DNA of 64,000 nt from an uncultured Pseudomonadota bacterium. Its GTDB lineage: Bacteria > Pseudomonadota > Alphaproteobacteria > JACZXZ01. The translations under genes were made by a program, and so were the position numbers. Location: the NCBI GenBank assembly GCA_963749075.1, contig CAVVLJ010000016.1:992001-1056000 (forward strand), in the 5' to 3' direction. Below, one piece after another: positions 9,991 through 21,800 of the stretch; position 1 is the stretch's first letter; each line of letters opens with the position of its first letter. The notes below the pieces were generated by a model. The model was not told the origin of the DNA. It worked only from the letters and a program-made list of their open reading frames with translations, and searched no databases.

Positions 9991-11657
9991 TGGCGGCCGG
10001 AGAGAAGGCAGCCGCGCGCGAGCTCCTCTTCGTGCCCCTTGGCGGGGCCGGGGAGATCGGCATGAACCTCAATCTCTACGGCCTCGACGGCTCTTGGGTG
10101 ATCGTCGATCTCGGCGTCACCTTCGGCGAGGAGCGGCTGCCGGGGATCGAGGTGGTGATGCCCGATCCCGCCTTCATCGTCGAGCGGCGCGAGCATTTGC
10201 TCGGCATCGTGCTCACCCACGCCCACGAGGATCACATCGGCGCCGTGCAGTATCTCTGGCCGCTCCTGCGCTGTCCCATCTATGCGACACCTTTCACCGC
10301 CTCCGTGCTGCGCCGCAAGCTCGAGGAGACCGGCCTCGCCAAGGCGGCAGCCATCACCGTGGTGCCGCTCTCCGGCCGCTTCACGCTGGGCCCCTTCGAG
10401 TTCGAGCTCATCACCCTCACCCACTCGATCCCGGAGCCCAATGCGCTCGCCATCCGCACGTCGCTGGGCACCGTCCTCCATACCGGCGACTGGAAGATCG
10501 ATCCCGACCCGCTCGTCGGCGCCGTGACGGACGCGGCGGCGCTGCGCCGCGTGGGCGAGGAGGGCGTCCTCGCCATGATCTGCGATTCGACGAACGTGCT
10601 GCGCGCCGGCGTCTCGGGCTCGGAGGCGGCCTTGCGCAAGAGCCTCTCCGAGCTCGTGGCGCGCGCGAGCCAGCGCGTCGCCATCGCTTGCTTCGCCTCG
10701 AACGTGGCGCGCCTCGAGACGATCGCGACGGTGGCCGAGGCCAACGGCCGACAGGCCGCCCTCGTCGGCCGCTCGCTCTGGCGCATCTACGAGGCCGCCC
10801 TCGAGAACGGCTATCTCAAGGACATCCCGCGCTTCCTCGACGCCGCCGAGGCGGCCTATCTGCCGCGCGACAAGGTGGTGCTGGCGATGACCGGGAGCCA
10901 GGGCGAGCCGCGCGCGGCCCTCGCGCGCGTGGCCGCCGGCGAGCACCGCCACATCGCGCTCGAGGCGGGCGACGTGGCGATCTTCTCCTCGCGCATCATC
11001 CCGGGCAACGAGCGCGCCATCTTCCGCCTGCAAGGAGCGCTCGCGCAGGCGGGCGTGGAGATCATCACCGAGCACGACGAGTTCGTGCACGTCTCCGGCC
11101 ATCCGGCGCGCGACGAGCTCGCCGAGATGTACAGCTGGGTGCGGCCGCGGATCGCCGTGCCGGTGCACGGCGAGGCGCGCCATCTCATCGAGCATGCCCG
11201 CTTCGCGCGCGCCTGCCAGGTGCGCGAGACCGTGGTGGTGACGAACGGCGACATCCTGCGCCTGGCCCCCGGTCCCGCCGAGATCGTCGGCCAGGCGCCC
11301 TTCGGGCGGCTCGCCCTCGACGGCAAGGCGCTGGTGCCGGCTGAGGGCGAGGTGGTGCGGAGCCGCGCGCGCATGATGTGGAACGGGGCCGCCGTGGCGA
11401 CCGTGGTGGTGGACGGCGAGGGCGAGCTCGCGGCCCCCCTCCAGCTCGCCCTTCCCGGGCTCGTCGGCGACGCGAGCACGGCAGCGCTTGCGGGCGAGGC
11501 CGAAGCCGCCATCAGAGCGGCACTCGCGACGCTCGCCAAGGGTGCGCGCGGCGACGACGCGGCGCTGCGCGAGACGGTGCGCCTCGCGGTCCGCCGCAGC
11601 ATCCGCATGGCGCGCGGCAAGAAGCCGACGATCGACGTCCACCTCGTCCGTGTATAA
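9990..11657 (+). CDS. rnj: Ribonuclease J
   Basis: GEIGMN, THAHEDHIG, HTGDWK, GSQGEP, HVSGH, PVHGE metallo-beta-lactamase/beta-CASP motifs; ATG overlaps coaX stop. Confidence 0.95.
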   Translation: MAAGEKAAARELLFVPLGGAGEIGMNLNLYGLDGSWVIVDLGVTFGEERLPGIEVVMPDPAFIVERREHLLGIVLTHAHEDHIGAVQYLWPLLRCPIYATPFTASVLRRKLEETGLAKAAAITVVPLSGRFTLGPFEFELITLTHSIPEPNALAIRTSLGTVLHTGDWKIDPDPLVGAVTDAAALRRVGEEGVLAMICDSTNVLRAGVSGSEAALRKSLSELVARASQRVAIACFASNVARLETIATVAEANGRQAALVGRSLWRIYEAALENGYLKDIPRFLDAAEAAYLPRDKVVLAMTGSQGEPRAALARVAAGEHRHIALEAGDVAIFSSRIIPGNERAIFRLQGALAQAGVEIITEHDEFVHVSGHPARDELAEMYSWVRPRIAVPVHGEARHLIEHARFARACQVRETVVVTNGDILRLAPGPAEIVGQAPFGRLALDGKALVPAEGEVVRSRARMMWNGAAVATVVVDGEGELAAPLQLALPGLVGDASTAALAGEAEAAIRAALATLAKGARGDDAALRETVRLAVRRSIRMARGKKPTIDVHLVRV

Positions 11658-11683
11658 TGGACGACAGTGGAGGAGGGCGAGCC

Positions 11684-12088
11684 ATGATCGGCAGGCTCAA
11701 TCACGTGGCGATCGCGGTGCCCGATCTCGCGGCGGCGGCAGCACTCTACCGGGACACCCTCGGCGCCAAGGTCTCGCCGCCCGTCGACATGCCGGCCCAT
11801 GGCGTGACGACCGTCTTCGTCGAGCTCGCCAACAGCAAGATCGAGCTTCTCCATCCGCTCGGCGACGGCTCTCCCATCGCCGCCTTCCTTGCGCGCAACC
11901 CGGCGGGCGGCATCCACCACGTGTGCTACGAGGTGCCGGACATCCGCGCGGCGAGGGACCGGCTCAAGGCCGCCGGCCTGCGCGTGCTCGGCGACGGCGA
12001 GCCGCGCACCGGTGCCCACGACAAGGCGGTGCTCTTCCTCCATCCCAAGGACTTCTGCGGCACCCTCGTCGAGCTCGAAGAGGTCTAG
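11684..12088 (+). CDS. mce: Methylmalonyl-CoA epimerase
   Basis: LNHVAIAVPD, IELLHP, GGIHHVCYEV, FLHPKD, LVELEE motifs; SD GGAGG upstream. Confidence 0.95.
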   Translation: MIGRLNHVAIAVPDLAAAAALYRDTLGAKVSPPVDMPAHGVTTVFVELANSKIELLHPLGDGSPIAAFLARNPAGGIHHVCYEVPDIRAARDRLKAAGLRVLGDGEPRTGAHDKAVLFLHPKDFCGTLVELEEV

Positions 12089-12097
12089 GCGCTGGCG

Positions 12098-12335
12098 ATG
12101 AACTGGTTCGAGAGCCTCGTCGCCTTCATCGTCATCTGGTGGCTGGTCCTCTTCATGGTGCTGCCATGGGGCGTGCGCATCCCGGACAAGGCCGAGCCCG
12201 GCCATGCCACGAGCGCCCCCGTGCGGCCCAGGCTGTGGCTCAAGGTGGCTGGTGACGAGCGGTATCGCCGCCGTGCTCTGGGTCATCGTCTTCCTGATCG
12301 CCTCGAGCAACCTCATCACCTTCCGGAACGGCTGA
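12098..12335 (+). CDS. DUF1467 family small membrane protein with apparent +1 frameshift at 12247-12248
   Basis: IWWLVLFMVLPWGVR...SAP motif; removing one G gives a second TM helix (VLVTSGIAAVLWVIVFLIA) and a TGA at 12333-12335 just before the next ATG. Confidence 0.8.
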
Positions 12336-12336
12336 C

Positions 12337-12876
12337 ATGGGCTCCCACTACTGCGACGTAGCCCCGGGCCATCCCTGGCACGGCGCCTACCACGACGACG
12401 AATACGGCTTTCCGCTGGCCGACGAGGCGGGGCTCTTCGAGCGCCTCGTGCTCGAGATCAACCAGGCGGGCCTGAGCTGGCTCACCATGCTGACCAAGCG
12501 CGAGGCCTTCCGCCGCGCCTACCGCGGCTTCGCGGTCGACCGCGTCGCCCGCTTCGGCGCGCGCGACGAGGCGCGCCTGCTCGCCGATGCCGGCATCGTG
12601 CGCAACCGGCTCAAGATCGCGGCCGCGATCGAGAACGCCAAGCGCATCCGGCGCCTGCGCGCGAGCCACGGCTCGCTCGCCGACTGGCTCGCCGCTCACC
12701 ATCCGCGCGACAAGGCCGCCTGGGTCAAGCTCTTCAAGGAAACCTTCGTCTTCACCGGCGGCGAGATCACCGGCGAGTTCCTCATGTCGATCGGCTATCT
12801 CAAGGGCGCCCACCGGGAGGACTGCCCGGTCTTCGAGCGCATCGCCAAGCTATCGCCGCCCTGGATGCAGGCCTAG
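12337..12876 (+). CDS. tag: DNA-3-methyladenine glycosylase I
   Basis: YHDDEYG, LEINQAGLSW, GIVRNRLKI motifs and terminal H-x3-C zinc ligands. Confidence 0.92.
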   Translation: MGSHYCDVAPGHPWHGAYHDDEYGFPLADEAGLFERLVLEINQAGLSWLTMLTKREAFRRAYRGFAVDRVARFGARDEARLLADAGIVRNRLKIAAAIENAKRIRRLRASHGSLADWLAAHHPRDKAAWVKLFKETFVFTGGEITGEFLMSIGYLKGAHREDCPVFERIAKLSPPWMQA

Positions 12877-12902
12877 CGGAGCGCGCGCGCCTCGCTCTGC
12901 GC

Positions 12903-12936
12903 AAAAAGAAAGGCAAGCACCCCGGAGGGGCTTGCC
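12903..12936 (-). terminator. Intrinsic terminator
   Basis: Minus strand reads GGCAAGC-CCC-TCCG-GGG-T-GCTTGCC followed by TTTCTTTTT. Confidence 0.85.
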
Positions 12937-13096
12937 GTTCCGCGTCGCTGGGCAGTGCTGAAAAATCTTGTTTCGATTTTAGCGAGCAGCTTCCCTCTGC
13001 GACGAGAAGTTCTTTCTCCCTACACTTAGGGCCGCCCGACTGGAGCAAGCCCCTTTTTCGCCGCTTCGGCCCGCTGCTCCGGACACCGACGCGGCG
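12903..13096 (-). ncRNA. Candidate small RNA of about 190 nt; 3' end resembles my recollection of the alphaproteobacterial sRNA near proS (possibly BjrC1505 family)
   Basis: Strong minus-strand terminator with no credible minus-strand CDS upstream; sigma70-like TTGCAA-N17-CAATAT at 13131-13103; family assignment unverified. Confidence 0.55.
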
Positions 13097-13102
13097 CCCA
13101 CC

Positions 13103-13131
13103 ATATTGCGCGAGGCCAGACAGGATTGCAA
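13103..13131 (-). promoter_or_regulatory. Putative sigma70 promoter of the candidate sRNA
   Basis: TTGCAA (13131-13126), 17-nt spacer, CAATAT (13108-13103). Confidence 0.4.
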
Positions 13132-13180
13132 TAGAAAACGGCAAAAAACGCCCGGGATTGCCGAGATTTTCGGCAAATTC

Positions 13181-13261
13181 TGCTGCAATGCGGAAGCTCT
13201 TCAGCGGAGCGGGCGTAGGCGTTTCGGCACGGCCTGCCCTTGTTTATGTTGCAGTGCAGCA
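13181..13261. promoter_or_regulatory. Two PhaR-like operator boxes
   Basis: TGCAGTGCAGCA at 13250-13261 fits TGCRNYGCASMA; a one-mismatch copy lies on the minus strand at 13181-13192. Confidence 0.5.
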
Positions 13262-13322
13262 TCATCTATCCAAGGCACGGGCGGGGGCCGTTCCTCCCCG
13301 GCACATTGGCATATGAGGGAGC

Positions 13323-13946
13323 ATGTCCTCCGATTTACCGGCAGCGCCCGATGACGGCGGGCGCTTGATCTACCGCAGGATATGGCCGCGGGAGCGCGCC
13401 TTGGTGAAGGCGCATCTCCTGCGTCTCGACGAGGAAAGCCGCCGGCGGCGGTTCTTCGGCCATGTCTCGGACCTCGTCGTCGAGAGCTATTGCGAGCAGG
13501 TCGTTTCCACCGGCTATCCCATCCTGGGCTGCTTCGCAGCAGGCGTGCTGCGCGCGATAGCTGAGCTGCGCACGTTCGGGGCGGCCGGCGCGCGCAAGGC
13601 CGAGCTCGCGGTCTCCGTGGAGCGGCCGTTCCAGGGCCGCGGCATCGGCGCCGAGCTTGTCCGCGAGGTGATCGTCCTGGCGCGCAACCGCTCGGTGCGC
13701 GTGCTGCACATGTCCTGCCTGCGCGAGAATGGCCCGATGCAACTCATCGCGCGCAAGCTCGGCGGCACGCTCGAGTTCCGCGAAGGTGAGGTGGCGGCCC
13801 GCATCAATCCCCCGTGGCCGACCTATTGGTCGCTCATGGAGGAGGCCTTCTCGGAGGGGCGCGCGGTCATGCATACGCTCGAGCTTGCGCAACACGGCGC
13901 AGCATCGGAGCGCGATGGAGAAGGCCGAAGCGTCGCGGCCGACTGA
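13323..13946 (+). CDS. GNAT family N-acetyltransferase
   Basis: Acetyl-CoA motif A (ELAVSVERPFQGRGIG), ENGPM motif and N-terminal SRRRRFFG; SD upstream. Confidence 0.88.
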   Translation: MSSDLPAAPDDGGRLIYRRIWPRERALVKAHLLRLDEESRRRRFFGHVSDLVVESYCEQVVSTGYPILGCFAAGVLRAIAELRTFGAAGARKAELAVSVERPFQGRGIGAELVREVIVLARNRSVRVLHMSCLRENGPMQLIARKLGGTLEFREGEVAARINPPWPTYWSLMEEAFSEGRAVMHTLELAQHGAASERDGEGRSVAAD

Positions 13947-14027
13947 GCAACGGCGGCGGCGGGCCGCCGCGGCAGAAGCCGGCGATGCCGTTGCGCGCCG
14001 CATCGGCTTTCCCTGTCCCGCCCGGGC

Positions 14028-14285
14028 TCAGCGGCCGCGGAGTGCTGCGACCGCCTTTGCCTTTTCCTCCCTCGACAGGCGGGAGTCGCCGAGGATCATG
14101 GCGATCTTGCCTTCGATAAAGGCGCGCTCGGCCGCGCGGTCGCGCGGCACCTTGCGGCTGATCCGCGCGAATTCCTCGCGCATGTCCGTCGCCGGTACGC
14201 GTTCCCCGCTCCGGGGATCGATCACGTCCATCGGCGTTCCGCCCGGCGGCTCCGGCGGCGTGGCCGGCCTCGATGTGCGAGCCAT
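14028..14285 (-). CDS. Hypothetical 85-aa helical protein, paralogous to the N-terminal segment of the upstream 313-aa protein
   Basis: GGAG 7 nt before ATG at 14285; 17/52 ungapped identity to residues 23-74 of 14316..15257. Confidence 0.75.
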   Translation of the reverse strand: MARTSRPATPPEPPGGTPMDVIDPRSGERVPATDMREEFARISRKVPRDRAAERAFIEGKIAMILGDSRLSREEKAKAVAALRGR

Positions 14286-14315
14286 CGTCTTTCTCCGCAG
14301 TCTCATCGGCAACAC

Positions 14316-15257
14316 TCAGCTGTTCACCGCCCACGTATAGTTGGCATCGAGGAAGAGCAATTTGAAGCCCTTGTTGTCGGTACGCACATAGCTGTCGGCG
14401 GGGCCGGGCAAGTGCCAGCTGCCCCAGTTGCCGTTCTGATCCATGCTGATCAGCTGGGTGTTGATGGCACCCATGGCGCCCGTGCCTTGATAAGCATTCT
14501 GGAACGTTTCGACGATCGGCCCCCAACTCCCCACCCAGCCTGTTTGCTGCTGGGCGACCGTGGCCGTGTAGCCGTATTGGTAGACCAAGTCCCAGCGATT
14601 GGCGGCGTGATTCCAAAGGAACACCTGATTGTACCAATAACCGGACTGGCTCGCGACCGTCGCATTGTAGATCGACAAGGTCTGGTACGGATGTCCGTGG
14701 GCGGAGGTTGTCTGGAGATAGTTGCCGAGATTGCCGAACGGTATGTTCGTCTGCCACGGGGCATTGGGATAGCGGGCCCAATCGAACACCTTGAAGAAGG
14801 TGCTGTTCTGGCCGTTGTAGGCGACAAAGGCCTCGACGCCCATGGCGGAGCGGTTGGTGGCGGTGAGATAGAGGAAGGTATTGACGTTGCCGCCCGGTGG
14901 ATTGGGGCAAATCACCGGAAAATAGATTGCCGTCCCGAGGCCGAATGCAGTCTTGAATGGGCTATTGTAGAAGATGCCGTAGCCCACTCCGCCTGGCACC
15001 GGCCCTTGCGGCTTGGCGCCCTTCGGGAGTGCGAGACGGGCGCTCAATTCGGCGTGCGCAGCATCTCGCTCGGCGAGCGCCAGTGTCGGATGGGTATGAA
15101 GAATATGAAGCTTGCTCGCAAGGAATGCCGCCTCGAACTCCGGCTGGCGCGGGCTCCGCCCCGTCATCTCGGCAAAACTCTCTCTCGCGTCGCCCACCTC
15201 CAAGCCGCCCTGCGGCCCAGCCACGGGAAGCGCCAGCGCGATTGAGCTTTCAGCCAT
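14316..15257 (-). CDS. Hypothetical 313-aa protein: helical N-terminal segment, Pro/Gly linker and aromatic beta-rich domain with two Glu (neprosin-like peptidase or clan GH-C-like hydrolase candidate)
   Basis: GGGAGG SD 7 nt before ATG at 15257; Trp/Tyr/Asn/Gln/Thr-rich composition unlike shadow ORFs; A/T-richer than flanks. Confidence 0.85.
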   Translation of the reverse strand: MAESSIALALPVAGPQGGLEVGDARESFAEMTGRSPRQPEFEAAFLASKLHILHTHPTLALAERDAAHAELSARLALPKGAKPQGPVPGGVGYGIFYNSPFKTAFGLGTAIYFPVICPNPPGGNVNTFLYLTATNRSAMGVEAFVAYNGQNSTFFKVFDWARYPNAPWQTNIPFGNLGNYLQTTSAHGHPYQTLSIYNATVASQSGYWYNQVFLWNHAANRWDLVYQYGYTATVAQQQTGWVGSWGPIVETFQNAYQGTGAMGAINTQLISMDQNGNWGSWHLPGPADSYVRTDNKGFKLLFLDANYTWAVNS

Positions 15258-15503
15258 GGATATGCCTCCCAATGTTGGTCGCCGCCACCCTGCCCGGTCG
15301 CGTCGGGCGGCAACCCAACTAGTGGAAATTATGGACGTTATACCACCGATTGGAGATCGAGAGGCGGAGATTCTCAAAATCGGGCTGTAACGTGCGCGCG
15401 TTTCTCGAAATGCTTGCAGCAGTGCCAGAGCCGGCGCCATTGCCATCCCAGAGGCCATTGCCTACAGTCCGGCCCGACCAAGAGCCAGGAGTGCTAGCCT
15501 GCC

Positions 15504-16820
15504 ATGCGCCTTTCCGCCTACTTCATGCCGACGCTCAAGGAGAACCCGGCCGAGGCGCAGATCGTCTCGCACCGCTACATGCTGCGCGCCGGCATGATCC
15601 GCCAGGCGAGCGCCGGCATCTACAGCTGGCTGCCCCTCGGCTTCCGCGTGCTCAAGCGCATCGAGCAGATCGTGCGCGAGGAGCAGGACCGCGCCGGCTG
15701 CCAGGAGCTCCTCATGCCGACGATCCAGTCGGCCGACCTCTGGAAGGAGTCCGGCCGCTACGAGGACTACGGCAAGGAGATGCTGCGCATCCAGGACCGC
15801 CACGAGCGCGAGATGCTCTACGGCCCGACCAACGAGGAGCTCATCACCGAGATCTTCCGCGCCTCGGTCAAGAGCTACCGCGAGGTGCCGAAGCTCCTCT
15901 ACCACATCCAGTGGAAGTTCCGCGACGAGGTGCGGCCGCGCTTCGGCGTCATGCGCGGGCGCGAGTTCCTCATGAAGGACGCCTATTCCTTCGACCTCGA
16001 CTTCGCCGGCGCCCAGCGCGCCTACAACAAGATGTTCGTCGCCTACCTGCGCACCTTCGCGCGCATGGGCCTCAAGGCCATCCCCATGGCGGCCGAGAGC
16101 GGCCCCATCGGCGGCGACATGAGCCACGAGTTCATCATCCTGGCGGACACCGGCGAGAGCAAGGTCTTCTGCCACCGCGACTTCGTCGAGTTCGACGTGC
16201 TCGGCAGCGACTTGAGCTCCGGGGACGACCTGGCACCCGTCGTCGACCATTGGACGAGCCTCTACGCCGCGACCGACGACAAGCACGACCCCGAGGCCTT
16301 CGCCGCCATCGCTCCGGAGAAGCGCATCGAGGCGCGCGGCATCGAGGTCGGGCACATCTTCTATTTCGGCACCAAGTACTCGGCGCCGCTCAGGGCCTAC
16401 GTGGCCGACGCCAAGGGCGCACCGCACGCCGTGCACATGGGCTCCTACGGCATCGGCGTCTCGCGCCTGGTCGGCGCCATCATCGAGGCGAGCCACGATG
16501 AGAGCGGCATCATCTGGCCGGAGCCGGTATCACCCTTCAAGGTCGGCCTGATCAACCTGCGCGCGGGCGATGCGGCCTGCAGCGAGGCGTGCGACGCCAT
16601 CTATGCCAGGCTGGCCGCAGCCGGGGTCGAGGCGCTCTACGACGACCGCGAGGAGAGTGCGGGCGCCAAGTTCGCCGAGATGGACCTCATCGGGCTGCCC
16701 TGGCAGCTCGTTATAGGGCCGCGCGGCCTCAAGGGGGGCACCGTCGAGCTCAAGGCGCGCAAGAGCGGCGAGCGCCACGAGCTCTCCCTCGAGAGTGCGC
16801 TCGAGCGCCTCTGCGGCTAG
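15504..16820 (+). CDS. proS: Proline--tRNA ligase (short form without editing domain)
   Basis: [48 protein letters not shown] motifs. Confidence 0.98.
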
Positions 16821-16830
16821 GCGCCGGGAG

Positions 16831-18075
16831 ATGATCTTCTCGCCCTTCGAGCGCATGGTGGCGATGCGCTATCTGCGCGCGCGGCGCCAGGAGGGCTTCA
16901 TCTCCGTGGTCTCGTGGTTCTCGCTCATCGGCATCCTCCTCGGCGTGATGGCGCTCATCATCACGCTCGCCATCTTCAACGGCTTCCGCCAGCAGCTCAT
17001 CGAGCGCATCCTCGGGCTCAACGGCCACATCTCGGTGCAGGACGTGAGCGGCGCCATTCTGAACTACGACCAGGTGGCGGCCGCCGTCCGCGCCGTGCCG
17101 GGGGTGGCGAGCGTGACGCCGCAGATCGACAGCCAGGCGATCGTCACGGCGGGCGGCAACTCGCTCGGCGCCGTGGTGCGCGGCATCAAGCCCGACGGCC
17201 TCAAGAAGCTCGCCCTCGTCGCCGACAAGCTGGTCGGCGGCTCGCTCGACGATTTCGCCGACGACGGCGTGGCGATCGGCTACCGCCTGGCCGCCCGCCT
17301 TGGCATCACGGTCGGCGGCCGGCTCTCGCTCATCACGCCCGAGGGGGCGGTGACCGCCTTCGGCACCATCCCGCGCATCAAGACCTACCACGTGGCCGCC
17401 GTCTTCAACGTCGGCATGTTCGAATACGACAGCGGCTACATGTATATGCCGCTCGCCGCGGCGCAGCTCTATTTCAAGCTGCCCAACGAGGTGAACGAGC
17501 TCGAGGTGCGCATCGACGATCCGGAGCGCGCACCCGCCATGGCGGGTCCCGTCCAGCTCGCCGCCGGACCGGGCCTCCACGCCATCCCCTGGCAGCAGGT
17601 CAATGCGAGCTACTTCAATTTCGTGGCATTGCAGCGCAACCTCTACGCCATCGTGGTGACCCTCATCATCGTGGTCGCCGCCTTCAACATCATCTCCGGC
17701 CTGATCATGCTGGTGAAGGACAAGGCGCGCGGCATCGCCATCCTGCGCACCATCGGCGCCACTCGCGCCATGATCATGCGCATCTTCTTCATGACCGGCA
17801 TGAGCATCGGCGTCGTCGGCACCGCGAGCGGCCTCGTCCTCGCCCTCCTCTTCTGCCACAACCTCGAGAGCATCCATCAGTGGCTGCAGCGCAACACCGG
17901 CCAGAACCTCTTCCCCGCTGAGTTCTTCTATCTGACCCAGCTCCCCGCCGTGGTCGATCCCAAGGAGGTGGTGCTCGTCGTGCTCATGAGCCTCGGCCTC
18001 ACCTTTCTCGCCAGCATCTATCCGGCGTGGCGCGCCGCACGCCTCGATCCTGTGGAGGCGCTGCGCTATGAGTGA
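16831..18075 (+). CDS. lolC: Lipoprotein-releasing ABC transporter permease (LolC/E)
   Basis: [49 protein letters not shown] motifs. Confidence 0.93.
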
Positions 18076-18778
18076 GGCGGCCCCGGCAAGCGCCGCCGCG
18101 ACGGCCCCGGCGCTCGCCCTCGTCGAGGTGGTGCGCACCTATCGCCAGGGCAGCGAGGCGGTCGAAGTGCTGCGCGGTGTCACGCTCGCGGTTTCCGCGG
18201 GCGAGGCCGTGGCGCTCGTCGGCCCCTCGGGCGCCGGCAAGTCGACCCTCCTCCATATAGCAGGCCTCCTCGAGCGGCCGGACCGCGGCGAGGTGATGAT
18301 CGAGGGGGCCGCCTGCGGCCGGCTCGGCGACGACGAGCGCACCCGCTTGCGGCGCACGCAGCTTGGCTTCGTCTATCAGTTCCACCACCTGCTGCCCGAA
18401 TTCTCGGCGCTCGAGAACGTCATGCTGCCCCAGATGATCGCGGGCCTCTCGCGCGAGGTGGCGCGGGAGCGCGGACGCCAGCTCCTCGCCATGGTCGGCC
18501 TGCTGCCGCGCGAGAGCCACCGCCCGGCGCGGCTCTCGGGCGGCGAGCAGCAGCGCGTCGCCATCATGCGCGCCGTCGCCAACGTGCCGCGCGTGCTCCT
18601 GGCCGACGAGCCGACCGGCAACCTCGACCAGACGACCGCCGACGGCGTGTTCGGCCAGCTCCTCAGCCTCGTCCGCCGCACCGGGCTCGCCGCCCTCGTG
18701 GCCACCCACAACCGCGAGCTCGCGCGCCGCATGGACCGTGTCGTCGAGCTCAGGAACGGCGTGCTCGTCGCGGCCTGA
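18068..18778 (+). CDS. lolD: Lipoprotein-releasing ABC transporter ATP-binding protein
   Basis: Walker [36 protein letters not shown]. Confidence 0.95.
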
Positions 18779-18848
18779 CGGCCGGTTTTCCACAAGATGT
18801 GGACAGAATATCTCCCGGCAGCCGCAACATGCTGGTATCCTGGCCGCC

Positions 18849-21800
18849 ATGCCGCACGCCGATTTCGTCCATCTCCGGGTCCACTCGGCCTATTCGCTCT
18901 CCGAGGGCGCCATCAAGATCAAGGCGCTCGTCGAGCTCGCCCGGCAGCACGGCATGCCCGCCGTGGCGATCGCCGACAGCGGCAACCTCTTCGGCGCGCT
19001 CGAGTTCGCCCAGGCCGCCGAGGCCGGCGGCATCCAGCCGATCATCGGCTGCCAGCTTGCCCTCTCCCGCGAGGAGCGCGAGCCGCGCAACGGGGGACCT
19101 GCGGCCAAGCCCGACCAGCTCGTGCTCCTGGCCAAGGATGAGACCGGCTACCGCTCGCTCCTCAAGCTGGTGAGCAAATCCTTCCTCGAGACGCCGGGCG
19201 GCGAGGCGCCGCAGCTCGCGCTCGCCGAGCTCGAGGCCGGCAATGCGGGCCTCATAGCACTTACGGGCGGTGCCGCGGGGCCGGTCGGCCGTCTCCTCGG
19301 CGACGGCCAGGCGCCGGCTGCCGAGGCCATATTGCTGCGCCTCGCCAAATGCATGGGCGACCGTCTTTACGTCGAATTGCAGCGCCACGGCATGGCGAGC
19401 GAGGAGCGCATCGAGGCGGCGCTCATCGACCTCGCCTATCGCCACGGCATTCCGCTCGTCGCCACCAACGAGGCCTTCTTCGCCGACGAGAGCATGTTCG
19501 AGGCGCACGACGCGCTCCTCTGCATCGCCGAGGGAAGCTACGTGACCGACGCCGAGCGCCGCCGCTTGACGCCCGAGCATCGCTTCAAGTCCGCGGCGGA
19601 GATGAAGCGGCTCTTCGCCGATCTTCCCGAGGCGATCGCCAACACGCTCGTCATCGCCCGGCGCTGCGCGTTCTACCCGGCGACGCGCAAACCCATCCTG
19701 CCGCGTTTCGAGACGCCCGGCGGGATTTCCGAGGCCGAGGAGCTCAAGCGCCAGGCCGAAGAGGGCCTCGAGCGCCGCCTCGCGGCGCGAGTGCTGACGG
19801 AAGCCAAGAGTGCGGCCGAGCGCGAGGCTGCAGCACGGCCCTACCGCGAGCGCCTGCGCTACGAGCTCGGGGTGATCAGCCAGATGGGCTTCGCCGGCTA
19901 CTTCCTCATCGTCGCGGACTTCATCCAATGGGCCAAGGCGCACGGCATCCCGGTGGGGCCGGGGCGGGGCTCGGGCGCCGGCTCCGTGGTCGCCTGGTCG
20001 CTGACGATTACCGATCTCGATCCCTTGCGTTGGGGCCTTCTCTTCGAGCGCTTTCTCAACCCCGAGCGCGTCTCCATGCCCGACTTCGACGTCGACTTCT
20101 GCCCGGAGGGGCGCGATGAGGTCATCCATCACGTGCAGGAGAAATACGGCCGCGACCGCGTCGCCCAGATCATCACCTTCGGCAAGCTGCAGGCGCGCGC
20201 GGTCCTGCGCGACGTGGGCCGCGTGCTGCAGATGCCCTACGGCCAGGTCGACCGCATCTGCAAGATGGTGCCCAACAACCCGGCCAACCCGGTGAGCCTG
20301 CAGCAGGCCATCGACGGCGAGCCGCTCCTCCAGGACATGCGGCGCGAGGACGAGACGGTCGCCCGTCTCATCGACATCGCCCTCAAGCTCGAGGGCCTCT
20401 ACCGCCATGCCTCGACCCATGCCGGCGGCGTCGTCATCGGCGACCGGCCGCTCGACGAGCTCATCCCGCTCTACCGCGATCCGCGCTCCGAGATGCCGGT
20501 CACCCAGTTCAACATGAAATGGGTCGAAGCCGCCGGTCTGGTGAAGCTCGATTTCCTCGGGCTCAAGACCCTGAGCGTCTTGGTGTCCGCCGAGCGGTTG
20601 CTGCGTCAACGAAAGATAGACATCGATCTCAACAACTTGCCGCTCGACGATCGAGCGACGTTTGAAATGCTGAGCCGCGGCGATTCGACCGGGGTGTTCC
20701 AGCTTGAAGGATCGGGCATGCGCGACGTCTTGCGCAAGCTCAAGCCCGCCCGCTTCGAGGACATCATCGCCGTGGTGGCGCTCTACCGGCCCGGGCCGAT
20801 GGACGACATCCCGAAATACATCAACGTCAAGAACGGCACGGAGGCCCCCGACTATCTGCATCCCGCACTCGAGCCGATCCTGCGCGAGACCTTCGGCATC
20901 ATGGTCTATCAGGAGCAGGTGATGCAGATTGCCCAAGAGCTCTCCGGCTACAGCCTGGGGAAGGCCGATCTCCTGCGCCGTGCCATGGGCAAGAAGATCA
21001 AGTCCGAGATGGAAGCGCAGCGCAAAGGCTTCATCGACGGGGCCATGGCGCGCGGCGTGGACGCGGCCCAGGCGGCCGGCATCTTCGACAAGGTCGCCAA
21101 GTTCGCCGGCTACGGCTTCAACAAATGCCACGCGGCACCCTATGCGCTGATCGCCTACCAGACCGCCTATCTCAAGGCCAATTATCCCGTCGAGTTCTTC
21201 GCCGCCTCGATGACCTACGAGCTCGGGAACACCGACAAACTCAACATATTCCGCCAGGAATTGCAGCGACTTGGCATCGCTCTCCTGGCGCCGGACATCA
21301 ACCGCTCCGAGGCGGCCTTCGCGGTCGAGGAGGCGGCGGGCGGCGGCATCGCGATCCGCTATGCGCTTGCCGCACTCAAGGGCGTCGGGGCCGCGGCCAT
21401 GGCAAGCCTGGTCGCCGAGCGCCGCGCCCGCGGGCCGTTCCGCTCGCTCGCGGACTTTGCCGAACGGCTCGACTCGCGCATCCTCAACAAGCGCCAGCTC
21501 GAGAGCCTCGCCGCGGCGGGCGCCTTCGACGCCCTGACCGCGAACCGCCGCCAGGTCTTCGAGGCGGTCGAGCAGATCGTGCGCCATGCCGGCAAGGCCA
21601 GCGAGGAGCGCACCAGCCACCAGACCTCGCTCTTCGCCACCCTGGCCGGCGAGGGTGCCGCCGAGGCGGCCCCGGCGCTGGCGCTCCCGGCCGTGCCGGA
21701 CTGGCCGCCCATGGAGCGGCTCAAGCGCGAATTCGACGCCGTCGGCTTCTATCTCTCGGCCCATCCGCTCGACGCCTACGGCAAGACGCTGGATCGCCTC

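Follow-up and report, generated by a model that had tools for sequence, protein, structure and literature searches.

We analyzed a pair of genes in a 64,000-nucleotide stretch of contig CAVVLJ010000016.1 (positions 992,001 to 1,056,000; assembly GCA_963749075.1) from an uncultured alphaproteobacterium. We will call this stretch the window, and all coordinates below refer to it. The pair consists of two co-oriented open reading frames (ORFs) that are separated by a gap of 30 nucleotides (nt), each with its own Shine-Dalgarno-like sequence:

14316-15257, minus strand: large gene (P0001), a translated ORF of 313 amino acids, stop codon included
14028-14285, minus strand: small gene (P0002), a translated ORF of 85 amino acids, stop codon included; it ends where the third helix of the module described below ends
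15265-15270, minus strand: Shine-Dalgarno-like GGGAGG, read from the sequence, 7 nt upstream of the large gene's ATG
14293-14296, minus strand: Shine-Dalgarno-like GGAG, read from the sequence, 7 nt upstream of the small gene's ATG

An earlier examination of this DNA, which we will call the original prediction, had proposed that the large gene encodes a zymogen and that the small gene is a stand-alone relative of its pro-segment. When we re-read the window, the coordinates, the sequences, the shared orientation, the 30-nt gap, and the two Shine-Dalgarno sequences were all as it had claimed.

The large protein has two domains. AlphaFold modeled it with a predicted local distance difference test score (pLDDT) of 77 from an alignment of 20 sequences (the first model). 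From 122 diverse sequences (the second model), the pLDDT rose to 94.3, with a predicted template modeling score (pTM) of 0.92. The parts are:

15036-15233, minus strand: N-terminal module (the "lid"), residues 9-74, with a pLDDT of 92-98 over residues 21-70
14997-15035, minus strand: linker of Pro, Gly, and Lys, LPKGAKPQGPVPGG, residues 75-87, which varies in length and sequence across the family
14319-14996, minus strand: beta-sandwich, residues 88-313, with a pLDDT of 94-98, which begins with an invariant PGGVGYG strand

In the model, the lid is made up of a Pro-rich leader, a strand (residues 21-23), and three helices (25-33, 39-54, and 61-74). D23, F45, and a basic residue at position 49 are conserved. 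At the linker, the mean pLDDT for blocks of 10 residues drops to 86 (residues 71-80) and then 68 (residues 81-90) in the second model. The linker that had been described from the sequence, LPKGAKPQGPVPGG, is indeed there, and the model bears out the beta-rich C-terminal domain.

The small protein is an ancient paralog of the lid. An ungapped alignment pairs residues 23-74 of the large protein with residues 34-85 of the small one, and a recount of the identical positions gave 17 of 52, the same number as before. Using BLASTP with composition-based statistics, the match extends to 67 columns with 21 identities (31%; E = 2e-7). The Smith-Waterman score is 69, versus 26.6 ± 4.8 for 5,000 shuffles of the small protein and 25.9 ± 4.6 for 5,000 shuffles of the N-terminal 84 residues of the large protein. 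Because none of the 5,000 shuffles in either set reached 69, the resemblance is not an effect of composition, and the hand-made alignment is significant.

Across the family, lids and small proteins share the motifs D-x-R-x-x-F, A-F-x-x-x-K, P-x-L, and a C-terminal A-x-x-x-L. They also differ consistently: lids have H56 where small proteins have D67, and lids have R64 where small proteins have K75. The leader of the small proteins is I-D-P-x-(S/T)-G-x-x-V-P, and lids of the core clade (the members with no signal peptide and with an extra free lid; see below) have L-P-x-P-x-P instead. The D-P-x-(S/T)-G-x-x-V-P leader is found in the small proteins of L002, L004, L014, and other loci, and at residues 19-31 of the small protein in the window. 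The same leader precedes the N-terminal module in distant secreted relatives.

The families of both proteins are of considerable size and lack annotation. A word-indexed search found 570 homologs of the large protein (E ≤ 1e-3), and an exhaustive profile search found 483 representative clusters at 50% identity. Where source names were shown, all of these were unnamed or "hypothetical protein." For the small protein, a single-sequence search found just 3 proteins, and a profile built from 46 small proteins found 237 stand-alone clusters, all unnamed. The stand-alone proteins are about 74-98 amino acids long (among the 120 clusters listed of 237). Neither protein had a usable match in Pfam, NCBIfam, PADLOC, or PHROGs: PADLOC gave 0 families for both, and PHROGs gave one match only (E = 0.3). 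Comparisons to the Protein Data Bank by sequence, with a single sequence and with a profile, gave chance matches only (E > 1). A literature search, which did not cover supplementary files, found no description of the family or of the pair.

To examine how often the two genes occur together, we scanned one genome per prokaryotic species and obtained 75 loci. (Locus L086, from the unpublished genome G093, was left out of every analysis.) These loci come from Planctomycetota, Acidobacteriota, Alpha- and Betaproteobacteria, Actinomycetota (including Streptomyces, Mycobacterium, and Mycobacteroides), Rokubacteria, Bacillota, Bifidobacterium, Verrucomicrobiota, and others. We then built a profile of the lid from residues 21-76 of 20 large proteins, without using any small protein, and ran it against the 10,638 six-frame ORFs of the 75 loci:

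49 loci (L001-L047, L058, and L064): module in the large gene and again in a short ORF that follows closely downstream, on the same strand
2 loci (L050 and L074): downstream copy only, with the large gene cut or degraded
1 locus (L059): another, tandem arrangement
10 loci: N-terminal module only
13 loci: no match to the lid profile

A stand-alone downstream copy is thus present in 51 of the 75 loci, including all 47 of the closest relatives, and the small ORF does recur beside homologs of the large gene. The start codon of the small gene could be assigned in 48 of the 50 loci with two matches. Taking the first in-frame start, the small proteins have 58-123 amino acids, and the one of 58 is from the atypical L059. 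The two genes are separated by at most 35 nt or overlap in 41 of the 48 loci, and the gap is 57-118 nt in five others. In the remaining two (L026 and L042), the large gene is interrupted. No other neighboring family is conserved across the loci, so the unit is exactly two genes. The next neighbor clusters are shadow ORFs inside the large gene or are limited to 6 closely related loci of the Mycobacteroides type.

A few loci have unusual arrangements. In L026, L038, L042, and L058, the large gene looks interrupted, by a frameshift or a premature stop, and the small gene is intact. The interruptions could reflect decay or assembly errors in metagenome-assembled genomes. In L059 (2873-4900), a 336-amino-acid ORF with a match to the N-terminal module is followed by a 77-amino-acid ORF with a weak match and then by a sandwich ORF. 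This may be a duplicated or rearranged cassette.

The resemblance between lid and small protein probably dates back to an old duplication. Among 49 lid/small pairs (48 loci and the window), the mean identity is 48.8% from small protein to small protein, 39.6% from lid to lid, 33.1% from a lid to the small protein of its own locus, and 30.9% from a lid to the small protein of another locus. We also built a tree of 107 domains. As it was based on a 54-column alignment and was poorly resolved (7 of 104 branches were starred), we used it only for a constrained-clade test and for the clustering of labels. The lid and small labels need 4-5 changes on the tree, versus about 35 when they are shuffled. 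Holding all of the small proteins as one clade was not rejected (P = 0.88, approximately unbiased test). Given the pattern of identities, the label clustering, and the clade test, these sequences fit with one old duplication that was followed by joint inheritance, and they do not fit with repeated recent copying.

If the small protein is a freed lid, then it might bind where the lid sits. We predicted the complex of the small protein (46-row alignment) with residues 85-313 of the large protein (122-row alignment). The interface score (ipSAE, computed from the predicted aligned errors) was 0.90, 0.91, and 0.93 in three runs, versus 0.01, 0.01, and 0.00 for controls. When the tool was calibrated, 58 of 80 solved complexes and 2 of 110 mismatched pairs reached the mark for this score. 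At least 72% of the contacts are common to the runs, and the pLDDT of the partner is 78 or higher. The original prediction had asked whether the small protein binds the truncated domain, and the model predicts that it does (ipSAE of 0.91 versus 0.01 for the best control).

The model of the complex pairs residues 32-36 of the small protein, including the strand D34-M35-R36 with its invariant D34 and R36, with the edge strand 221-227 of the large protein. F39, I42, and S43 of the small protein contact residues 171-173, and the interface also includes residues 245, 250, 252, 292, and 294 of the large protein. We compared this to covariation within the large family alone, where 28-172, 31-173, and 25-224 are among the 20 strongest pairs between the two domains. 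The alignment of the lid to the small protein has an offset of +11 (the small residue number is the large residue number plus 11). With this offset, those pairs become 39-172, 42-173, and 36-224, which are 3 of the 25 trans contacts with the lowest predicted error. Since the cis covariation pairs match the trans contacts, the lid and the small protein are expected to sit on the same surface. The small protein was thus predicted to dock where the native N-terminal segment does, which is what the original prediction had proposed to examine. From these models, we think that the small protein probably does bind the sandwich at the lid site.

To see what kind of enzyme the sandwich might be, we compared both models to the Protein Data Bank with Foldseek. 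Glutamic peptidases rank first by E-value for both models. The main matches, with template modeling (TM) scores on the target, are:

2ifr, scytalidoglutamic peptidase: E = 2.6e-6, probability 1.00, TM 0.42
2ifw, scytalidoglutamic peptidase: E = 2.3e-5, probability 1.00, TM 0.42
7zu8, 7zva, and 7zvb, neprosin zymogen and mature forms: E = 2.7e-5 to 1e-4, probability 1.00, TM 0.33-0.41

For 2ifr, 2ifw, and 1s2b, the probability is 1.00, the TM-score is lower on the query (0.31) than on the target (0.42-0.43), and the root-mean-square deviation (rmsd) is 7.5-8.1 Å. Using features from a protein language model, Peptidase_A4 is the nearest named family (0.90-0.91), and it accounts for 6 of 30 matches in a second search (0.93). 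Because sequence profiles give no link to the glutamic peptidase families G1 or G3 (see below), we treat this as a lead at the level of the predicted fold and not as membership. The case for the large protein being a peptidase is evenly balanced.

We counted conservation at each position in 280 aligned members of the family. The codons of the most relevant acidic residues are:

14832-14834, minus strand: E142, candidate catalytic glutamate, E in 278 of 280
14508-14510, minus strand: E250, candidate catalytic glutamate, E in 274 of 280
14781-14783, minus strand: D159, invariant aspartate, D in 280 of 280

Both of the sequences that lack E142 also lack E250. Other near-invariant residues are N210 (278 of 280), W160 (277 of 280), and W245 (275 of 280). 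In the lid, position 49 is K or R in 250 of 280 and R25 is found in 167 of 280, with 14 rows gapped at each position.

To place E142 and E250 relative to each other, we used mean-field covariation (176 effective sequences; ranks among 25,200 pairs). The covariation recovers hairpins of the model, such as 143-155, 146-153, 209-229, and 211-227. It also places G92-Y93-G94, the invariant Gly-rich strand, between the strands of E142 and E250: the pair 94-248 ranks 38th, 94-252 ranks 48th, 92-143 ranks 49th, and 142-250 itself ranks 122nd. By strand parity, E142 is on the face of residue 148 and E250 is on the face of residue 252. The interface predicted with the small protein includes residues 148 and 252 and also E250. 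This is suggestive of a near-invariant acidic pair on the face that the lid is modeled to cover, which makes E142 and E250 our candidate catalytic pair. They are 108 residues apart and are the 58th and 166th residues when counted from residue 85. We also tried a forced alignment to neprosin homologs, in which E142 was one residue and E250 was six residues off the conserved glutamates; we gave this alignment no weight.

The distribution of signal peptides across the family divides it in two. By inspection and by a crude hydropathy scan of the homologs (not SignalP), neither protein from the window has a Sec-like hydrophobic N-terminus, in line with the claim that both lack a Sec signal. The scan used a 15-residue window with a cutoff of 2.0 or above. 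This was reached at 8 of 19 loci without the small gene, versus 0 of 45 loci with the small gene, where the highest value was 1.89 (in L037, far upstream).

Distant members of the family (34-45% identity) have a hydrophobic signal or anchor, then a recognizable or vestigial N-terminal module, and then the sandwich. They are found in Bacillota, Bifidobacterium, an anammox bacterium, Acidobacteriota, and Verrucomicrobiota. For instance, L066 has the signal peptide, the N-terminal module (E = 2e-10), and the sandwich. A Sec-type signal or anchor is present in L049, L055, L057, L062, L066, L068, L070, and L072, which have no small gene within 4 kb. Overall, the pattern is clear: the secreted forms consist of a signal, a pro-like module, and the putative enzyme, and the core clade has no signal and an extra free lid. 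A Pfam scan of 10 distant members found domains in 2 of them: one has SLH, PKD, and Ig-like domains, and the other has a weak match to FG-GAP. In the remote member P0261 (751 amino acids), the sandwich (511-749) is fused to SLH, Big_7, and PKD domains, which is a cell-surface architecture.

The explanation that best accounts for all of this is that the large protein is an autoinhibited hydrolase, probably a glutamic-type peptidase, and that the small protein is a trans-acting paralog of its lid. We put the chances of this explanation as a whole at about even. The homology, the synteny, the fold class, the conserved acidic pair on the covered face, the predicted binding, and the shared docking site were computed here. 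From these, we infer catalysis, latency imposed by the lid in cis, removal of the lid, and re-capping or inhibition by the small protein.

We propose that the Pro-rich leader, the strand (with D23-x-R25), and the three helices pack on the face of the sandwich that bears E142 and E250, and that these glutamates flank the invariant G92-Y93-G94 strand on the covered face. The sandwich is most likely a glutamic-type peptidase that has diverged strongly, and the layout of its dyad would be nearer to that of neprosin (Glu/Glu) than to that of the eqolisins (Gln/Glu). The lid in cis would keep the enzyme latent, and the tethered lid would swing out or be cut at the flexible linker. The small protein would dock on the same face, with its D34-M35-R36 strand on residues 221-227 and its helices over residues 168-173, 245-252, and 292-294. 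Because the docking face is shared, the small protein could bind only after the tethered lid had moved away or been severed. From then on, it would act as a propeptide-like inhibitor or a safety catch by capping the enzyme again. Since the core clade lacks a signal peptide, this control would act in the cytoplasm.

Two of the original proposals are thus supported in part. That the large protein is a zymogen is favored by its glutamic-peptidase-like fold, with the neprosin zymogen among the matches, and by the relatives that combine a signal, the N-terminal module, and the sandwich, but there is no sequence-profile link to G1 or G3. The small gene had been proposed to encode an inhibitor, an immunity protein, or a chaperone. 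The predicted binding at the lid site is consistent with all of these, and the three roles are not separable by our data.

Several observations weigh against an autoinhibited glutamic-type peptidase. First, the structural TM-scores are low overall (0.31-0.45), with an rmsd of 8-9 Å, and other concanavalin-like sandwiches match as well: a phage tailspike domain, 4qhw, alginate lyases, and spike N-terminal domains. Second, there was no match in Pfam at E ≤ 1, including to PF01828, PF03080, or PF14365. Third, hhalign gave 0.5% for 12 bacterial ORFs of the Peptidase_A4 family (PF01828; 178-sequence family alignment) and 0.5% for 3 bacterial ORFs of the neprosin family (PF03080), in a set-up with low power, as G1 and G3 themselves are undetectable to each other in it (probability 0.04%). 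Fourth, the geometry of E142 and E250 was derived from covariation and strand parity only, and two glutamates on a jelly-roll sheet also fit several families of glycoside hydrolases. Fifth, known glutamic peptidases are secreted and act at acid pH, while the core clade lacks a signal peptide; and the lid is helical here, whereas the pro-domain of neprosin is all-beta. Sixth, the association with signal peptides comes from a crude scan over related loci that are not independent. Finally, the complex predictor may copy the cis arrangement of full-length relatives, so that its scores indicate likeness and complementarity, not affinity.

Alternatively, the sandwich could be a glycan-active enzyme or a lectin with a concanavalin-like fold (such as a glycoside hydrolase, a polysaccharide lyase, or a binding module), and the lid and its small paralog would gate a binding cleft. 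Foldseek matched 4qhw, a putative sugar hydrolase (probability 0.99), with the highest TM-score on the query (0.36). This match and those to alginate lyases came from the first model. Coronavirus spike N-terminal domains are among the generic sandwiches that come close behind the glutamic peptidases. Both models matched the glycanase domain of a tailspike, and a library of viral structures gave only generic concanavalin-like matches. An alginate-lyase cluster is among the nearest named clusters by language-model features (0.89). Also, Trp, Tyr, Asn, Gln, and Arg are abundant in the conserved core (N135, R136, W160, N198, N210, Y226, Y230, Q237, and W245), as is typical of sugar sites, and the distant member P0261 is fused to SLH, PKD, and Ig-like domains. 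But glutamic peptidases come first by E-value for both models, and Peptidase_A4 is the commonest named family by features. Furthermore, a signal peptide, a module that looks removable, a catalytic domain, and a free copy of the module is the usual logic of a latent protease, and glycan-active enzymes rarely need latency. We consider a glycan-binding or glycan-cleaving role to be fairly unlikely.

The genomic context of the pair bears on another alternative. On one side, the pair is flanked by a divergent gene that resembles prolyl-tRNA synthetase (15504-16820, plus strand), and on the other side by a convergent acetyltransferase-like ORF (13323-13946, plus strand); both were named by eye from their translations. 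The GC content of the large gene is 0.58-0.62 (14300-15200), versus 0.65-0.73 in the flanks, and is 0.70 in the small gene. We found no second copy in this genome, just the single copy, and the family was found in 0 of 40 relatives (5 from the same genus, 5 from the same family, and 30 from the same class). The closest homologs of the large gene are from Planctomycetota and Acidobacteriota. Because of the lower GC content of the large gene, its absence from the 40 relatives, and the affiliation of its closest homologs, the cassette is best read as horizontally acquired and island-like.

Other features of the locus were less informative. The large ORF is open upstream, in frame, as far as an ATG at 15458 on the minus strand, which would add 67 residues (15258-15458). 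This extension is not found in the N-termini of the homologs, its start has no Shine-Dalgarno sequence comparable to that of the start at 15257, and it reaches to within 46 nt of the divergent plus-strand gene. The extension is probably non-coding. A scan for promoters and terminators found no minus-strand site for the operon. Among sequencing runs, no RNA data set was listed as containing the region; four DNA runs were listed, and 2 of these contain at least half of the sampled words. At about 68% GC, long ORFs are expected on the opposite strand and in alternative frames, and positions 10000-20000 of the window do contain many such shadow ORFs. Of those that overlap the pair, none is conserved other than by shadowing the large gene.

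Given this context, the pair could be a module akin to a toxin-antitoxin or defense system, in which the large protein is harmful when uncapped and the small protein is a labile antidote. Loss of the antidote, due to stress, phage infection, or loss of the cassette, would release the enzyme. In keeping with this, the two genes form an autonomous unit without conserved neighbors, they are patchily distributed across phyla and absent from the 40 relatives, and the GC content of the large gene is below that of its flanks. Also, the small gene is found only with forms that lack a signal peptide, and neutralizing binding is predicted. However, neither PADLOC nor PHROGs gave a match, no DNA-binding domain is evident in the small protein, and nothing in the window points to a phage or a mobile element. 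Moreover, the large protein has its own lid in cis, so an antidote would be redundant unless the lid is removed. The large genes with frameshifts (L026, L038, L042, and L058) could equally be due to decay or assembly error. Such a module seems to us quite improbable.

The small protein might instead help the large protein to fold, as the pro-domains of several protease families are folding catalysts, or pair with the N-terminal module in a hetero-oligomer, and its greater conservation as compared to the cis lid (48.8% versus 39.6%) does imply a constrained role of its own; but the high-confidence predicted interface is with the sandwich instead of with a helical partner and coincides with the covariation contacts of the cis lid, and AlphaFold models the large protein with confidence when the small one is left out (which is not a test of folding in vivo), so this is very unlikely.

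Returning to the autoinhibited hydrolase with a free paralog of its lid, parts of this arrangement have precedents. Free homologs of pro-segments that inhibit the mature enzyme are known for subtilisins (MEROPS family I9) and for papain-like enzymes (I29). To our knowledge, these inhibitors are not usually operon partners of the cognate zymogen, and their folds and enzyme classes differ from those of our pair. By analogy, the closest precedent for the pair, and one that the original prediction did not name, is SpeB-Spi of Streptococcus pyogenes, for which the primary paper is said to be Kagawa 2005. In the parts of the source that concern Spi, its gene is described as adjoining and co-transcribed with the gene for SpeB and as encoding an analog of the pro-region of SpeB, and Spi has been proposed to shield the cell from SpeB that becomes active in the wrong place (PMC2873492). 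As with SpeB-Spi, the small gene here lies next to the large gene in the same orientation (30 nt away in the window, with a downstream copy in 51 of 75 loci overall, at most 35 nt away or overlapping in 41 of 48), and the small protein is homologous to the pro-like N-terminal region of the putative enzyme. Unlike our beta-sandwich of putative activity, which has no sequence relation to it, SpeB is a secreted papain-like cysteine protease of family C10. Other differences from SpeB-Spi are that no signal-peptide-like N-terminus is found at any of the 45 small-gene loci or in the window protein, and that the pair is spread over many phyla.

Staphopain-staphostatin and Bfp-Bfi of Bacteroides are more distant parallels. 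According to the same source, where it treats these systems, a small, specific inhibitor that is encoded adjacent to and co-transcribed with the protease guards against its premature activity (PMC2873492). Those inhibitors are lipocalin-like and unrelated to the pro-region, while our small protein is a paralog of the N-terminal module of the putative enzyme.

Among the glutamic peptidases, neprosin (G3) offers the closest comparison for the large protein. The relevant sections of its structural description give a dyad of E188 and E297, which are 109 residues apart; counted within the catalytic domain (S129-Q380), they come 60th and 169th (PMC9343461). In the zymogen, an all-beta pro-domain covers the active face, and K118 of the pro-segment plugs E188 (PMC9343461). 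Neprosin is a secreted plant enzyme that is activated at acid pH. Like neprosin, the large protein would have a sandwich with an N-terminal module over the active face, and its glutamates have similar spacing and offsets (108 versus 109 residues apart). This parallel is suggestive, as a comparison of positions along the chain and not a structural superposition. Unlike in neprosin, the module here consists of three helices and a short strand, there is no match to PF03080 or PF14365, and the TM-score is just 0.33-0.41. A free gene for the pro-domain is not described in those sections of the source (PMC9343461). The G1 peptidases (eqolisins), which are characterized by an activity at acid pH that pepstatin does not inhibit, provide the best structural match and the nearest named family by language-model features. 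They have a Gln/Glu dyad, as stated in the portion of the source that covers it (PMC3009609), whereas both of our candidate residues are Glu; also, there is no match to PF01828, and hhalign gave 0.5%.

In summary, a zymogen with an adjacent, free analog of its pro-region (SpeB-Spi) and cytoplasmic guards encoded next to their proteases (staphopain-staphostatin) were already known, as far as the source goes into these systems (PMC2873492). What is new here is a pair of unannotated families with a glutamic-peptidase-like predicted fold that sequence comparisons did not connect to G1 or G3, the finding that the free lid strictly accompanies forms without a signal peptide, and the breadth of the pair across phyla.

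These families are sizeable (570 homologs and 483 clusters for the large protein, 237 clusters for the small protein). If the sandwich is a peptidase, then it would represent a new family of the rare glutamic class, and one that is found inside cells. If the small protein is an inhibitor, then the pair would illustrate how a pro-domain can turn into a free regulator. Because the pair is short and looks soluble, and because the contact and catalytic residues can be named, these ideas are directly testable at the bench. The predicted contacts are D34-R36 with 221-227 and F39, I42, and S43 with 171-173, and the candidate catalytic residues are E142 and E250.

A more speculative idea, which we think is a long shot, is that the core clade encodes a cytoplasmic protease switch with two locks: the tethered lid and a free lid that turns over faster. 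If stress, acidification, phage attack, or loss of the cassette were to deplete the free lid, self-proteolysis would set in. If so, this would be the first enzyme with a glutamic-peptidase fold that works inside bacterial cells, and it would show that the logic of toxin-antitoxin or abortive-infection systems can be built from a zymogen and its own pro-domain.

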